A stretch of DNA of 64,000 nucleotides from Dehalococcoidia bacterium (lineage in GTDB: Bacteria; Chloroflexota; Dehalococcoidia; SM23-28-2; RBG-16-64-32), in NCBI GenBank assembly GCA_963665775.2, contig CAXXTF010000002.1, positions 1,107,231 to 1,171,230 on the forward strand, in the 5' to 3' direction. Shown here in pieces: positions 1 to 40,503 of this stretch. The position numbers and the translations under genes are program-made. The first letter of the stretch is position 1. Each line of letters starts with the position of its first letter. The notes below the pieces were generated by a model, which did not search any database, had not been told where the DNA came from, and saw only the letters and a program-made list of their open reading frames with translations.

Positions 1-825
1 TCTACGTTCACCCGGGAGGAGTACGAGGCGGCGATCCGGCGGGCGCTCGCCTACATCCGGGCGGGCGACATCTACCAAGTGAACCTCTCGCAGCGCTTCC
101 AGGCTCCCTGCGGCGGCAACCCCTTCGATACGTACCTGGCCCTGCGCTCCCAGTCCCCAGCCCCCTTCGGCGCTTACCTCTCGTACCCTGGCTTCGCCGT
201 CCTGTCATCGTCGCCGGAGCGCTTCCTGCGCTATCAGCCGCAAGGCAGCCTGGTGGAGACGCGGCCGATCAAGGGTACACGCCCGCGCGGGGCCGACCCG
301 AGGTCCGATCGTGCCCTAGCCGGAGAGCTCTTGGCCAGCGCCAAGGACCGGGCCGAGAACGTCATGATCGTGGACCTGGAGCGGAACGACCTGGGAAGGG
401 TGGCGGCGGTGGGAAGCGTGGTTGTCACCGGCCTCTGTGAGCTGGAGACGTACGCCACGGTCCATCACCTCACGTCGACCGTGCAGGCCCGCCTGAGTGC
501 GGAACGGGATATCGTCGACCTGCTGCGGGCGACGTTTCCGGGCGGCTCCATCACGGGAGCGCCCAAGATCCGGGCTATGGAGATCATCGACGAGCTGGAA
601 CCGGTGGCCCGCGGCCTCTACACCGGCGCCATCGGCTACGTCGCCTTCGACGGCTCCCTGGACCTGAACGTCGCCATCCGGACGATGGTCGTAAAGGACG
701 GCGTCGCCTCGTTTCATGTGGGCGGCGGCATCGTCGCCGACTCGGACCCGGCGCAGGAGTTCGAGGAGACGCTGCACAAAGGTGCAGCCATGACCCGAGT
801 CCTGGTAGGCGAGGGCGGACCATGA
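1..825 (+). CDS. pabB: aminodeoxychorismate (or anthranilate) synthase component I, C-terminal part; the 5' end lies outside the window
   Basis: Frame 1 is open from nt 1 (STFTREEYEAAIRRALAYIRAGDIYQVNLSQRF) and runs into the listed 79..825 ORF. Chorismate-binding enzyme motifs are present (PGGSITGAPKIRAMEII, RGLYTGAIGY, GGGIVADSDP). The ATGA overlap with a class IV aminotransferase gene favours PabB over TrpE. Confidence 0.8.
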   Translation, partial: STFTREEYEAAIRRALAYIRAGDIYQVNLSQRFQAPCGGNPFDTYLALRSQSPAPFGAYLSYPGFAVLSSSPERFLRYQPQGSLVETRPIKGTRPRGADPRSDRALAGELLASAKDRAENVMIVDLERNDLGRVAAVGSVVVTGLCELETYATVHHLTSTVQARLSAERDIVDLLRATFPGGSITGAPKIRAMEIIDELEPVARGLYTGAIGYVAFDGSLDLNVAIRTMVVKDGVASFHVGGGIVADSDPAQEFEETLHKGAAMTRVLVGEGGP

Positions 826-4676: not shown

Positions 4677-5153
4677 ATGATCACGTTTGACGAGGGCAAG
4701 GCGAGGTTCAACTACCGCGTGGTGGGGATCGCCCTGGATGGCAGCCGGGTGCTGCTGCACAGAGCGGACTGGGAAAGGTTCTGGTATCTGCCGGGAGGTC
4801 GAGGAGAGCTGCTGGAGCCCGCCCGAGAGACGCTAAAGAGGGAGATGCGCGAGGAGCTAGGCGTGGAGATCGAGGTCGGGCGGCTGGTGTGGGTGGCCGA
4901 AAACTTCTTCGAGCATGAAGAGAAGTCCTACCACGAGCTGGGTTTCTACTTCCTGATGACGCTTCCGGACGGCTCAGGTCTCCGCCGGAAGGATGAGTTC
5001 GTGGGGGACGAAGAGGGCGTCAAGCTGATCTTCAAGTGGTTTCCGATCGATGAACTCGAAGGTGTCCCGCTCTATCCCGCGTTCTTGCGAGAGGGGCTCA
5101 GGTCGATCCCTCAAAGCACAGAACACGTGGTGTACACAGATGTCATCAAGTGA
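4677..5153 (+). CDS. NUDIX hydrolase
   Basis: Nudix box GGRGELLEPARETLKREMREELGV (GX5EX7REUXEEXGU pattern). Confidence 0.75.
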   Translation: MITFDEGKARFNYRVVGIALDGSRVLLHRADWERFWYLPGGRGELLEPARETLKREMREELGVEIEVGRLVWVAENFFEHEEKSYHELGFYFLMTLPDGSGLRRKDEFVGDEEGVKLIFKWFPIDELEGVPLYPAFLREGLRSIPQSTEHVVYTDVIK

Positions 5154-5181: not shown

Positions 5182-6024
5182 CTAGTCTGAGGCCAGACTC
5201 ACGTTATCGATAAGCCGGGTGCCACCGATCCGCACCGCCAGCGACACCAGGGCCGTGCGGTCAACAACCGCCAGCTCCGCCAACGAATCGGAGTCGGCCA
5301 CGCTGACGTAGTCGACCTGAGCCAGGGACTCCTGGGCCAGCACCTCGGCCACCGCCCGGCGCAGCCCTTCGGCGTCGCGCTCGCCCGCCCCGAACCGCTC
5401 CTCCGCCCGGCGGAGGGAGCGCCAGAGCACCATGGCCGCCCGTCGCTCCTCGGTCGAGAGGTTGACGTTACGGCTGGACATGGCCAGTCCGTCGGGCTCC
5501 CGCAGCGTGGGGCAGGGCACGATCTCCAGCGGCAGGCCCAGATCGCGGACCATACGGCTGATGACCCGAAGCTGCTGGGCGTCCTTCTGGCCGAAGTAGG
5601 CGCGGTGGGGCCGCACGATGCGGAAGAGCCGGGCGACGACGGTCGTGACGCCGCGGAAGTGGCCGGGGCGTGAGGCCCCCTCCAGACGGTCGACCAGGGG
5701 CCCGCTCACCTCCACCCAGTCCTCGAAGCCGGGCGGATACATCTCTTCGACAGAAGGCATGAAGAGCACGTCCACGCTCTCGCCCTCCAGGAGGCGGAGG
5801 TCACGCTCCGGGTCACGGGGGTAGCGGTCGAAGTCCTCGCCGGGACGAAACTGGGTGGGGTTCACGAAGATGCTGACGATGATCTGGTCGCTCTCGGCCC
5901 GGGCGCGCCGGACAAGGGAGAGGTGACCTTCGTGAAGGTAGCCCATAGTCGGCACCAAGCCAACGCTGCCCGCCATGCGGGCCCGCTGGGCCTCCATCTG
6001 GGCGACGGTCTCAACGACGTTCAT
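5182..6024 (-). CDS. panC: pantoate--beta-alanine ligase
   Basis: VPTMGYLHEGHLSLV (HIGH-like) motif and FVNPTQF; 280 aa; downstream of panB. Confidence 0.9.
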   Translation of the reverse strand: MNVVETVAQMEAQRARMAGSVGLVPTMGYLHEGHLSLVRRARAESDQIIVSIFVNPTQFRPGEDFDRYPRDPERDLRLLEGESVDVLFMPSVEEMYPPGFEDWVEVSGPLVDRLEGASRPGHFRGVTTVVARLFRIVRPHRAYFGQKDAQQLRVISRMVRDLGLPLEIVPCPTLREPDGLAMSSRNVNLSTEERRAAMVLWRSLRRAEERFGAGERDAEGLRRAVAEVLAQESLAQVDYVSVADSDSLAELAVVDRTALVSLAVRIGGTRLIDNVSLASD

Positions 6025-6092: not shown

Positions 6093-6935
6093 CTAGGCCA
6101 GGTGAGGCACCTCAGAGAACACCGACTCTTCCATGATGAAGCTCTCAAGATCGGTGGGGAAGCGACCGTCCTTCACCTCGGAAGTGTACTGGCGGACAGC
6201 GTCGACGACGGAATCGGCGAGGTGAGCGTAGCGCTTGGCGTGCTTGGGCATGAAATCAGCGATCAAGCCCAGCATGTCGTGGAGCACCTGCACCTGGCCG
6301 TCACAGTCGGGCCCGGCGCCGATGCCGATAGTGGGAACGCTGACCCGCTCCGTGATGGCCTTGGCCAGCTGAGTAGGGACGGTCTCCAACACGATGGCGT
6401 AGACGCCCGCCTGTTCCAGGGCAACGGCATCGTTCACGATCTTGACAGCGGCGGCGGGGGTCTTCCCCTGCACCTTGTAGCCGCCGAACTGATTGATGGA
6501 CTGTGGGGTCAGCCCCAGGTGGCCCATAACTGGAATGCCTGCCTCCACCAGACAGCAGACCGCATCGGCGACGCGCCGGCCGCCCTCCAGCTTCACGGAT
6601 TGAGCGCCGCCCTCCTTCAGCATACGGCCGGCGTTGTGCAGAGCCTCCTGCGGACCGGCCTGATAGCTCATGAACGGCATGTCCGCCACCACATGGGCGC
6701 CACGGGTGCCCCGCACGACAGGCTTCACGTGGTGAAGCATCTCGTCCATCGTCACGGGGATGGTGGAGTCGTAGCCGAGCACGACCATGCCGAGGCTATC
6801 GCCGACGAGAATGAGCGGTACGCCGGCCTCCTCCACAAGACGAGCGGAGGGATAGTCGTAAGCGGTCAGCATGACGATCTTCTCGCCACGCTTCTTCATC
6901 GCCTTGAGGTCGGTTACTGATACGCGCCGGTCCAT
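6093..6935 (-). CDS. panB: 3-methyl-2-oxobutanoate hydroxymethyltransferase
   Basis: KIVMLTAYDYPSARL, LVGDSLGMVVLGY and KLEGG motifs; 280 aa. Confidence 0.9.
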   Translation of the reverse strand: MDRRVSVTDLKAMKKRGEKIVMLTAYDYPSARLVEEAGVPLILVGDSLGMVVLGYDSTIPVTMDEMLHHVKPVVRGTRGAHVVADMPFMSYQAGPQEALHNAGRMLKEGGAQSVKLEGGRRVADAVCCLVEAGIPVMGHLGLTPQSINQFGGYKVQGKTPAAAVKIVNDAVALEQAGVYAIVLETVPTQLAKAITERVSVPTIGIGAGPDCDGQVQVLHDMLGLIADFMPKHAKRYAHLADSVVDAVRQYTSEVKDGRFPTDLESFIMEESVFSEVPHLA

Positions 6936-6948
6936 GTGGGATCACCCC

Positions 6949-7323
6949 TTATACAGCTAGGGCCACTTCCTCGGCTACCCGCACGACGCGGTTATCCTTG
7001 TCCACGTAGACGAGCTTCGGCCGGTGGGAGCGGGCTTCCTCTTCCTGGAACTGACCGTAAGTGAGAACGATCACCAGGTCACCGGCATGGACGAGGCGGG
7101 CGGCGGCGCCGTTGAGCACAACCTCTCCGGCCCCGGGTGTCCCCTCTATGGCGTAGGTGGTCAGGCGAGCGCCGTTGTTTATGTCGAGTACGTGCACTTG
7201 CTCGTAGGGGATGATGTCGGCCGCCTCCATGAGGACGGGGTCCAGAGTGATGGAGCCCTCGTAATCGATGTCGGCCCCCGTGACGGTAGCCCTATGTATC
7301 TTGCTCTTGAGCATCGTCCGCAT
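6949..7323 (-). CDS. panD: aspartate 1-decarboxylase
   Basis: MLKSKIHRATVT..DIDYEGSITLD includes the G-S self-cleavage site; 124 aa. It is the first gene of the panD-panB-panC unit. Confidence 0.9.
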   Translation of the reverse strand: MRTMLKSKIHRATVTGADIDYEGSITLDPVLMEAADIIPYEQVHVLDINNGARLTTYAIEGTPGAGEVVLNGAAARLVHAGDLVIVLTYGQFQEEEARSHRPKLVYVDKDNRVVRVAEEVALAV

Positions 7324-7356
7324 CTATCTCACCTCAGTCCCTCAGGCACCTAAAAT

Positions 7357-7382
7357 GCCCTCCCGGTGGCAACCGAGAGGGC
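7357..7382 (-). terminator. intrinsic-terminator-like hairpin in the pan leader (putative expression platform)
   Basis: The minus-strand RNA GCCCUCUCGG-UUGCCA-CCGGGAGGGC forms a 10-bp stem with one G.U pair. It is followed by AUUUUAGG, then the SD GAGGUGAG and the panD AUG. Confidence 0.5.
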
Positions 7383-7404
7383 ACACATGTTTCGCCTCTA
7401 TGTG

Positions 7405-7478
7405 CCGTCTCGGTCGGGTTTCCGATCCAAGCGGGTGCAACTATTCTTCGTGGCTCGCTGCCCACATGGGTCAGCGGC
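7405..7478 (-). promoter_or_regulatory. tandem bulged-adenosine hairpins in the panDBC 5' leader (pan-motif-like cis-regulatory RNA candidate)
   Basis: Hairpin 1 (7478..7453) is GC-C.GCUG-A-CCC[AUGU]GGG-CAGC.G-A-GC. Hairpin 2 (7434..7405) is CCG-CUUGG-A-UCGG[AAAC]CCGA-CCGAG-A-CGG. Both have a 4-nt loop, a 5'-side single-A bulge, exactly 5 bp, then a 3'-side single-A bulge. Both were folded by hand. Confidence 0.5.
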
Positions 7479-7484
7479 AGGCCG

Positions 7485-7514
7485 ATTATAGCAGGCACAT
7501 AGACAGCGGGTCAA
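7485..7514 (-). promoter_or_regulatory. sigma-70-type promoter for the pan operon
   Basis: Minus strand reads TTGACC (7514..7509), an 18-nt spacer, then TATAAT (7490..7485). The predicted TSS falls about at the first base of hairpin 1. Confidence 0.5.
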
Positions 7515-7586
7515 GTACACGAAGACCGAGAACCCAGTTGCCCACACTGAAGAAACTAAAGAAAGAGTCACAGCAAACACACCCCC

Positions 7587-8573
7587 CTAGGACGCTGACT
7601 GCAGCCACTCCCTCGCCGAGGGCACCCCGGCCAGACCTGTCGCCTGCGTCACCCCTCGCACGATGGCCCGCTCGACGGCGCGGGCCGCCAAGGCGCCCAG
7701 CTGCAGGATGTCCGTCTCGGCGTTCGTGCTGCCGGTGGCCAGAGCGAAGATCGTGTCGCCGTCGACAGGGCTATGCGCGGGACGGACGGCGCGGGCGAGG
7801 CCGGTCTGGGCCATGACGGCGAGCCGGTAAGCCTCCTCCTTCGTAAGGGAAGCGTCTGTGGCGACCACGCCGATGGTGCTGTTGGGCTCTCGCGCGAAAG
7901 GGGAGCGAGGCGGCCGCGCCCGCAGCGCCGCCAGGGTGTCGGCGAAGGCACCGGCGGTCTCGCCACGGGGCCCAGCGACGACACGACCGCTGTCGGGCTC
8001 AACCACCTCGCCGAAGCTGTTGACGGCGACGATGGCGCCGACGGTGACACCTGAAGCCGTGCGCTCACAGGCGGTTCCGAGGCCGCCCTTGAGAATCCGC
8101 TCTCGACCGAGGGCCTTGGCCACCGTGGCCCCCGTGCCGGCACCGACGCAACCCTCATCGACAGCGCCATCGCCGGCAGCCCGGCAGGCCGCGTAGCCGC
8201 TGTCGGCGTTCGGCCGTACGTCGGACCGGCCCAGCGACAGATCGATGAGCACAGCGCCCACGACTATCGGTACCACGCCCGCCGAGATGGGGAAGCCGTG
8301 GCCCCGCTCCTCCAGCCAGCGCATGATGCCGGCGGCGGCGTCCAGGCCATAGGCGCTGCCCCCCGTCAGGAGAACGGCGTGCACGCGCTCGACAAGTTGG
8401 CCCGGCCTCAGGAGGTCGGTCTCGCGGGTGCCGGGGGCGCCGCCGCGAACGTCGGCGGAGGCGACTGCGCCCTCCGGACAGAGGACGACAGTGCAGCCGG
8501 TAGCGGCCTCTGAATGGGTCCAATGGCCTACTTGAAGACCGGCTACAGCGGTTATCGCGTCAGGTTTGATCAA
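7587..8573 (-). CDS. peptidase family S58/P1 (DmpA / beta-peptidyl aminopeptidase-like, Ntn hydrolase)
   Basis: The 328-aa ORF carries NSTIGVVATDASLTKEEA and PVDGDTIFALATG motifs typical of DmpA-type aminopeptidases. Confidence 0.75.
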   Translation of the reverse strand: MIKPDAITAVAGLQVGHWTHSEAATGCTVVLCPEGAVASADVRGGAPGTRETDLLRPGQLVERVHAVLLTGGSAYGLDAAAGIMRWLEERGHGFPISAGVVPIVVGAVLIDLSLGRSDVRPNADSGYAACRAAGDGAVDEGCVGAGTGATVAKALGRERILKGGLGTACERTASGVTVGAIVAVNSFGEVVEPDSGRVVAGPRGETAGAFADTLAALRARPPRSPFAREPNSTIGVVATDASLTKEEAYRLAVMAQTGLARAVRPAHSPVDGDTIFALATGSTNAETDILQLGALAARAVERAIVRGVTQATGLAGVPSAREWLQSAS

Positions 8574-40427: not shown

Positions 40428-40503
40428 GGGGCTGTAGCTCAGCTGGGAGAGCGCCTCAATGGCATTGAGGAGGTCAGGGGTTCGAGCCCCCTCAGCTCCA
40501 CCA
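40428..40503 (+). tRNA. tRNA-Ala (anticodon GGC), CCA encoded
   Basis: The cloverleaf was folded by hand. The acceptor GGGGCUG/CAGCUCC has the G3:U70 alanine identity pair, the D-loop is AGCUCAGCUGGGAGAGC, the anticodon stem-loop is CCUCA-AUGGCAU-UGAGG, and the T-arm is GGGGUUCGAGCCCC. Confidence 0.9.

Follow-up and report, generated by a model that had tools for sequence, protein, structure and literature searches.

Very small hairpins arranged in tandem can sense metabolites, as the NAD+-I riboswitch (nadA motif) and the guanidine-II riboswitch (mini-ykkC) illustrate, and in the PyrR-controlled pyr leaders of Bacillus protein-dependent attenuation brings about end-product repression of a biosynthetic operon. 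The closest described relative of the element considered here is the pan motif (Rfam family RF01749), which consists of tandem stems with two conserved bulged adenosines each, upstream of panB, panC and aspartate decarboxylase genes, in a range of three phyla that includes the Chloroflexi (Weinberg et al. 2010, Genome Biol 11:R31, PMC2864571); the taxa named in an earlier, first-pass annotation of our locus agree with that publication. We analyzed a 64,000-nucleotide stretch of a Dehalococcoidia bacterium genome (GCA_963665775.2, contig CAXXTF010000002.1, positions 1,107,231 to 1,171,230), which as a whole we call the window, and conclude that the leader of its panD-panB-panC operon, on the minus strand, is probably, at about three chances in four, a genuine if somewhat divergent pan RNA that works as a transcription attenuator. 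The leader is a new example of an already catalogued RNA, and this kind of element is already known. The gain is one of annotation, a panD-panB-panC operon preceded by a putative pan attenuator that Rfam-based pipelines miss because its score is under threshold, and of detail, in the form of coordinates for an anti-antiterminator/antiterminator/terminator design and a pseudo-twofold 5'-CNNNG-A unit.

Both hairpins that the first-pass annotation had described on the minus strand are present in the sequence. Hairpin 1 (H1, 7453..7478, −15.0 kcal/mol) reads GCCGCUG-A-CCC[AUGU]GGG-CAGCG-A-GC, with a GC/GC foot, a CGCUG/CAGCG helix, a CCC/GGG top stem, an AUGU loop, and bulged adenosines at A7471 on the 5' side and A7455 on the 3' side. 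Hairpin 2 (H2, 7405..7434, −15.8 kcal/mol) reads CCG-CUUGG-A-UCGG[AAAC]CCGA-CCGAG-A-CGG, with a CCG/CGG foot, a CUUGG/CCGAG helix, a UCGG/CCGA top stem, an AAAC loop, and bulged adenosines at A7426 (5') and A7408 (3'). As had been claimed, the two share one geometry, in which a foot of 2-3 bp is followed by a 3' bulged A, exactly 5 bp, a 5' bulged A, a top stem of 3-4 bp and a 4-nt loop. The sequence 5'-C-N-N-N-G-A, its A bulged, recurs on the two strands of either hairpin, so that the 5-bp helix is the center of a pseudo-twofold unit; among the tandem leaders of the wide set introduced below, this helix has C-G at position 1 in 39 of 57 cases and G-C at position 5 in 48 of 57.

This architecture is that of RF01749, with its tandem stems, its two conserved bulged adenosines in each and its place upstream of panB, panC and aspartate decarboxylase genes, and the window's H2 fits the consensus GGAUC...GACCGrGAC. 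The departures lie in H1, whose top stem is CCC/GGG where the model has UC/GA, and in the 18-nt linker between the hairpins (CACGAAGAAUAGUUGCAC, 7435..7452), which falls about 14 nt short of its counterpart in the Rfam model; the 14 model positions deleted there lower the score, and among relatives the linker varies in length and sequence and in some contains an extra hairpin. The resemblance to the NAD+-I and guanidine-II riboswitches is looser. There, too, the 5' leader of genes making the presumed ligand contains a pair of small stem-loops that resemble each other, but the conserved positions of pan are mostly paired, with single-nucleotide bulges and no conserved internal or terminal loops, and there is no sequence similarity.

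A search with the pan covariance model, which the first-pass annotation had proposed as a check, returned a significant full-length match, though one under the curated cut-off to which we return below. RF01749 aligns at 7401..7479(-) over model positions 1-92 of 92, with 31.0 bits and E = 0.0014 (401 nt searched against 4227 families); H1 aligns to positions 1-29 and H2 to positions 60-88 with high posterior probability. When the complete 2.35-Mb genome was searched with the covariance model, the same segment was the only pan match (E = 0.0019), and neither this model nor a loose H2-core pattern found a second pan copy in the genome. The leader thus combines bulged-A pairs 5 bp apart, a tandem layout, a position in the 5' leader of panD-panB-panC and a full-length model match, and it has the same H2 core as four accepted pan members scoring 42-46 bits (loci L016, L018, L020 and L055). 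One other Rfam match in the 401 nt searched, to c4-a1b1, fell far short of its gathering score (14.4 versus 46.7 bits) and was set aside as chance.

Transcription of the leader is predicted to begin at its first hairpin. The promoter that had been read from the sequence, TTGACC-18-TATAAT, was found again by a promoter scan with 11 of 12 consensus matches; it is a sigma-70-type site at 7485..7514(-), with the -35 element TTGACC at 7514..7509, an 18-nt spacer containing a TG extension and the -10 element TATAAT at 7490..7485, and it is the sole such site within 7000..7900, where shuffled sequences yield 0.1. We infer a transcription start at about 7478, which is the first base of H1. For a leader of 162 nt the fold energy is −70 kcal/mol (z = −3.95), with 0 of 200 dinucleotide shuffles folding as well, and the minimum-energy structure of the complete leader consists of H1, H2 and a terminator. 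This arrangement recurs in the wide set, where 47 of 132 leaders, as opposed to 7 of 602 control anchors, have a TTGnnn-16..19-TAnnnT pattern whose end lies 5-9 nt ahead of the first hairpin, and where 42 of the 57 tandem leaders have a promoter-like site before the first hairpin. Such sites therefore speak against a transcription start downstream of the hairpins, as far as predicted starts can.

The intrinsic terminator (7352..7383, minus strand, −22.2 kcal/mol) has the stem GCCCUCUCGGU/ACCGGGAGGGC at 7382..7357, a UGCC loop and the tract UUUU at 7355..7352, and the segment between H2 and the terminator hairpin is CACAUAGAGGCGAAACA. It lies, as the first-pass annotation had it, ahead of the Shine-Dalgarno sequence (GAGGUGA, 7329..7335, read from the sequence, 5 nt ahead of the panD AUG at 7323..7321), with a stem of 11 bp, or 12 with U7383-A7356, rather than the 10 that had been counted. 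The alternative 8-bp helix reported in the same annotation, GGCACAUA/UGUGUGCC, is real but merely the inner half of a larger structure, an antiterminator hairpin (7371..7415, minus strand, −25.1 kcal/mol) in which GACCGAGACGGCACAUA at 7415..7399 pairs with UGUGUGCCCUCUCGGUU at 7387..7371 in 16 bp and one C.C mismatch. The antiterminator takes up the 3' arm of H2 together with the whole of the terminator's 5' arm. Folding of an RNA that ends at the terminator loop gives a minimum-energy structure with the antiterminator in place of H2; in the complete leader, H2 plus terminator beats the antiterminator. H2 is an anti-antiterminator because its 3' arm also pairs into the antiterminator, and a stabilized H2 should therefore switch the operon off. 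H2, antiterminator and terminator are mutually exclusive and share arms, which amounts to an expression platform overlapping the sensor, and this explicit platform is something that the RF01749 model does not have.

The design is much like that of the PyrR-controlled leaders, in which a 5' anti-antiterminator overlaps a stronger antiterminator that in turn overlaps the terminator, and in which effector binding leads to termination. If the window's leader works in the same way, RNA polymerase starting near 7478 would make H1 first and then H2. Unless H2 were held closed, the antiterminator (−25 versus −16 kcal/mol) would win during transcription, the terminator would be blocked and the operon would be read. 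An effector reporting that pantothenate or coenzyme A (CoA) is sufficient would lock one or both bulged-A hairpins, the antiterminator would be blocked, and the terminator would form and stop transcription before panD. Both the direction of the switch, with the effector turning the operon off, and actual termination at this site are what we infer for this leader.

Conservation among close relatives bears on each of the structural elements. We searched 41 related genomes, the window's own included, with the pan model and found a match in 15 (loci L001-L015), all upstream of panD or panB except L013, near which no pan gene was found. The leaders of 14 order-level relatives align block by block, and so does the window's leader with that of the one relative (genome G026, locus L002) that exceeds the Rfam gathering score, at 44 bits. 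Over the 14 relatives, 97.3% of cells in H1, H2 and the terminator are paired and nine pairs have changed on both sides, while 0 of 500 shuffles pair as well and slid partners are only 33-47% paired. Both-sided changes affect 5 of the 8 pairs of H1, H2 is paired in 99.4% of cells, and the terminator is paired in 95% with compensatory changes in three pairs. The bulged-A hairpins are thus conserved upstream of pan genes in alignable leaders with covarying pairs, as the first-pass annotation had expected. The outer 10 antiterminator pairs also hold in essentially all 14 relatives, and in 5 of them a C->U change in the terminator 5' arm keeps a G.U pair with the invariant H2 arm while the terminator 3' partner has changed G->A. 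The CAUA that directly follows H2 (7401-7398; alignment columns 142-145) is invariant in all 14, and is kept even where its antiterminator partner shifts register. In the wide set an AUAR after the hairpins is weakly enriched (28 observed versus 16.9 expected; 21 versus 15.6).

Beyond these relatives we relied on a wide set defined by the exact core CGCTYGGATC-N(3-16)-GACCGAGACGG; the counts of 130 to 133 loci or leaders drawn from it, like the species and phyla given for the core, are among the matches listed. A terminator-like hairpin occurs in 98 of 130 homologous leaders. In distant phyla, duplexes joining one arm of H2 to one of the terminator were compared with dinucleotide shuffles, which proved a weak control (median z = −1.1; 12 of 97 beat 99% of shuffles), and this control was replaced by a comparison with other terminators in the same loci. 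There the sequence CCNTCTC, which is complementary to H2's GAGANGG, is found in the terminator 5' arm of 37 of 96 pan leaders as opposed to 2 of 274 control terminators. It follows that the terminator sequence, beyond its ability to pair, is tied to H2. Structures, conservation, covariation, mutual exclusivity and gene context were all computed here, and it is the model match, the gene context, the relatives' alignment, the covarying stems and the terminator/antiterminator pair together that bear out the proposal that this leader belongs to the pan motif and that its platform acts by transcription termination.

Several observations weigh against that reading. The match of 31.0 bits falls under the curated RF01749 gathering score of 36.2, and an Rfam scan of the window at gathering thresholds misses pan, which appears only under an E-value threshold. 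The U-tract of the terminator is UUUU only, a consensus terminator scan did not flag it, and so short a tract may terminate transcription inefficiently. For the inner half of the antiterminator no fixed register is kept, with the relatives' bulges placed differently; its cognate helices reach −5.43 kcal/mol versus −4.73 for non-cognate ones, a weak preference, in the distant set 134 of 5000 permutations attain the observed value, and we claim no covariation for it. Only 59 of 97 distant-phyla leaders have an H2 arm that clearly pairs with that of the terminator. Finally, a literature search found no experimental study of any pan RNA and no effector. With regard to the score, the Rfam pan model is insensitive, missing leaders with a single hairpin or a divergent H1; the gathering score is missed by 14 of the 15 related genomes with a match, the window's own included, and reached by just 4 of 18 distant leaders (from among L016-L059) with an identical H2 core. 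It is an operational cut-off and no structural feature, and we file the leader as a pan member because this score, the sole point on which it falls short, is also missed by most homologous leaders.

The exact H2 core is present in more than 118 species genomes from about ten phyla. Its records come from Chloroflexota (Dehalococcoidia, Anaerolineae, Chloroflexia), Dormibacterota, Acidobacteriota and Thermoanaerobaculia, and further from deltaproteobacterial lineages, Binatia, Clostridia, Veillonellaceae and others, so that by these matches the range of pan is wider than the three phyla of 2010. The closest named pan operons, among the matches listed, are in Chloroflexia metagenome-assembled genomes (MAGs), with a PanB identity of 70-74%. 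A strict second hairpin upstream of H2 is found in 57 of 131 leaders, with 10 hits in control segments. Four leaders from Anaerolineae/Anaerolineales and a related MAG (L022, L032, L038, L103) have a single hairpin and no H1, a TATAAT -10 box ending about 8 nt before H2, and a terminator 5' arm that reads CCCGCC, not CCYUCUC. With regard to possible occlusion of the ribosome-binding site, 13 of 32 terminator-less leaders, versus 18 of 98 with a terminator, have a long open reading frame (ORF) beginning no more than 20 nt from H2, in GC-rich DNA where spurious ORFs are common. Three matches, in a Corynebacterium MAG (L017), a Gaiellaceae genome (L026) and L105, place the H2 pattern in coding sequence with neither pan genes nor a terminator and are judged to be chance; the number of such chance matches is roughly as expected from the size of the collection.

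A census of the genes downstream of the motif covered 321 ORFs at 133 loci. panB follows the motif at 63 loci, panC at 47 and panD at 46; a DUF2520 Rossmann protein is encoded at 32, an S58 peptidase at 10 (usually as the first gene), PanE/ApbA at 9, type III pantothenate kinase (CoaX) at 7, a short-chain dehydrogenase/reductase at 4 and CoaBC at 2. The ATPase of an energy-coupling factor (ECF) transporter is found at 6 loci, and CbiQ and S-component genes follow it in 2 (L104, L068), where the motif precedes an ECF ATPase-CbiQ-S-component module whose S component is unclassifiable. In a Chloroflexota MAG (L053), a single hairpin and terminator stand 67 nt before coaX-coaBC, without a pan gene. 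By their predicted functions, all of the genes that follow the motif serve pantothenate or CoA supply. Besides panB, panC and panD, the putative pan-controlled set takes in pantothenate uptake and CoA synthesis, a range suggestive of a late-pathway signal. The protein of about 290 residues with DUF2520 and Rossmann-like domains, encoded between the motif and panD (e.g., in L002, L016, L023, L030 and L076), has no NCBIfam name, and its sequence suggests a PanG-type ketopantoate reductase. The S58 peptidase gene heads the operon behind the pan hairpin in L018, L020, L058, L065, L067, L076, L099, L114 and L120, among about ten loci. This peptidase also has no NCBIfam name, and among proteins of solved structure it lies nearest to a nylon hydrolase (5e-67), an L-aminopeptidase/D-esterase and ThnT (2e-50). 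ThnT cleaves pantetheine to pantothenate and cysteamine, and by analogy the S58 gene may salvage pantothenate or release beta-alanine. No RNA-binding regulator gene is linked to the motif at any of the 133 loci, which encode only enzymes and transporters of pantothenate and CoA supply; this leaves room for a factor that may be encoded elsewhere.

What might lock the hairpins is a separate question from whether the leader is a pan attenuator. We lean, at somewhat less than even odds, toward a protein, possibly dimeric, acting as in PyrR- or TRAP-type attenuation: a homodimer, perhaps, or a pathway enzyme with a second job, would bind the bulged-A hairpins when pantothenate or CoA is plentiful and stabilize H2, leading to termination. 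The anti-antiterminator/antiterminator/terminator logic is that of PyrR-controlled leaders, each hairpin offers a pseudo-twofold 5'-C-N-N-N-G-A unit, the window's tandem layout is shared by at least 44% of leaders, the conservation of sequence sits within helices, and the discoverers of pan favored protein binding (Weinberg et al. 2010). If a protein is responsible, however, it would need to be conserved over about ten phyla, with no candidate gene for it linked to the motif in any of the loci of the census, and it would have to act on the single-hairpin leaders that are common in the wide set. Unlike the PyrR leaders, moreover, pan has no similarity to the PyrR binding loop and no RNA-binding protein encoded nearby, and its effector may be something other than a protein. 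It could be a small molecule of the CoA pathway, which we regard as doubtful; in such a riboswitch one or both hairpins would bind a metabolite, with CoA, dephospho-CoA and 4'-phosphopantetheine more plausible than pantothenate and its precursors, and a locked H2 would again give termination. The absence of any co-encoded regulator gene (0 of 133 loci) and an H2 core that is identical in so many species and phyla would suit direct sensing, and a strict second hairpin in only 57 of 131 leaders weakens the argument from tandem hairpins to a protein dimer. The hairpin is, moreover, joined to terminators in some leaders and possibly to ribosome-binding sites in others. Yet the conserved nucleotides are nearly all paired, the two bulged adenosines being the only ones conserved unpaired, while the loops differ from one another in both sequence and length, a pattern of conservation unlike typical aptamer pockets. 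An effector of some other kind altogether seems rather unlikely.

Given its place ahead of coaX-coaBC and uptake genes as well, the motif would more plausibly answer to a late-pathway signal such as the CoA pool than to pantothenate precursors; a motif before coaX-coaBC alone, as in L053, and before ECF genes would suit an end product. The most specific form of this proposal, that the pan hairpin alone serves as a minimal aptamer, with CoA or a late intermediate (e.g., 4'-phosphopantetheine) as its ligand, and is hence the long-missing CoA riboswitch, is improbable in our estimate. It would draw on the putative control of coaX-coaBC, ECF uptake and ThnT-like amidohydrolase genes besides panB, panC and panD, and on the single hairpin that serves many lineages with no partner protein gene co-traveling. 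CoA is among the few universal coenzymes without a known riboswitch (PMC9971707), and Weinberg et al. (2010, PMC2864571) entered a "?" under "switch" for pan, which leaves room for one; the same authors favored a protein, and reviews of 2022 from the laboratory that discovered pan list a CoA riboswitch as still "notably absent", pan having been described in the tractable B. subtilis twelve years earlier. Very improbable, by contrast, is an unregulated leader in which the structure is due to chance or serves some constitutive role (e.g., mRNA stability), the hairpin resembling a terminator acts as a leaky pause site or is a relic, and nothing is sensed. The short U-tract and a literature search that found no experimental evidence of regulation by a pan RNA would be in keeping with it, but it would not explain geometry and sequence that are extremely conserved across phyla, always with pantothenate or CoA genes, nor the compensatory changes in the stems, a terminator 5' arm constrained to complement H2, and the z score of the fold. 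Whatever the effector, pan is a widespread regulatory RNA, and the design features described for the attenuator are not specific to this window.

The three genes downstream of the putative pan attenuator, all on the minus strand, are those that the first-pass annotation had named, with identities borne out by Pfam and NCBIfam equivalog models: panD, aspartate 1-decarboxylase (6949..7323; PF02261, E = 2.5e-49; TIGR00223 equivalog above cut-off); panB, 3-methyl-2-oxobutanoate hydroxymethyltransferase (6093..6935; PF02548, E = 8.5e-119; TIGR00222 and NF001452 above cut-offs); and panC, pantoate--beta-alanine ligase (5182..6024; PF02569, E = 8.4e-106; TIGR00018 equivalog above cut-off). Just upstream of the leader, on the same strand, a family S58 peptidase gene is identified by Pfam at 7587-8573. 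Three ORFs overlapping the leader on one strand or the other, 7268-7816(+), 7024-7353(+) and 7398-7580(-), gave no match in a Pfam search and are treated as probable non-genes, and no conserved leader peptide was found at the pan leader. A NUDIX hydrolase gene at 4677-5153(+) is convergent with panC; its assignment as a CoA pyrophosphatase, considered by analogy with ThnR, was dropped as it had no supporting family match. Elsewhere, a tRNA gene at 40428-40500(+), with 62.7 bits, is the only Rfam match in the window at gathering thresholds.

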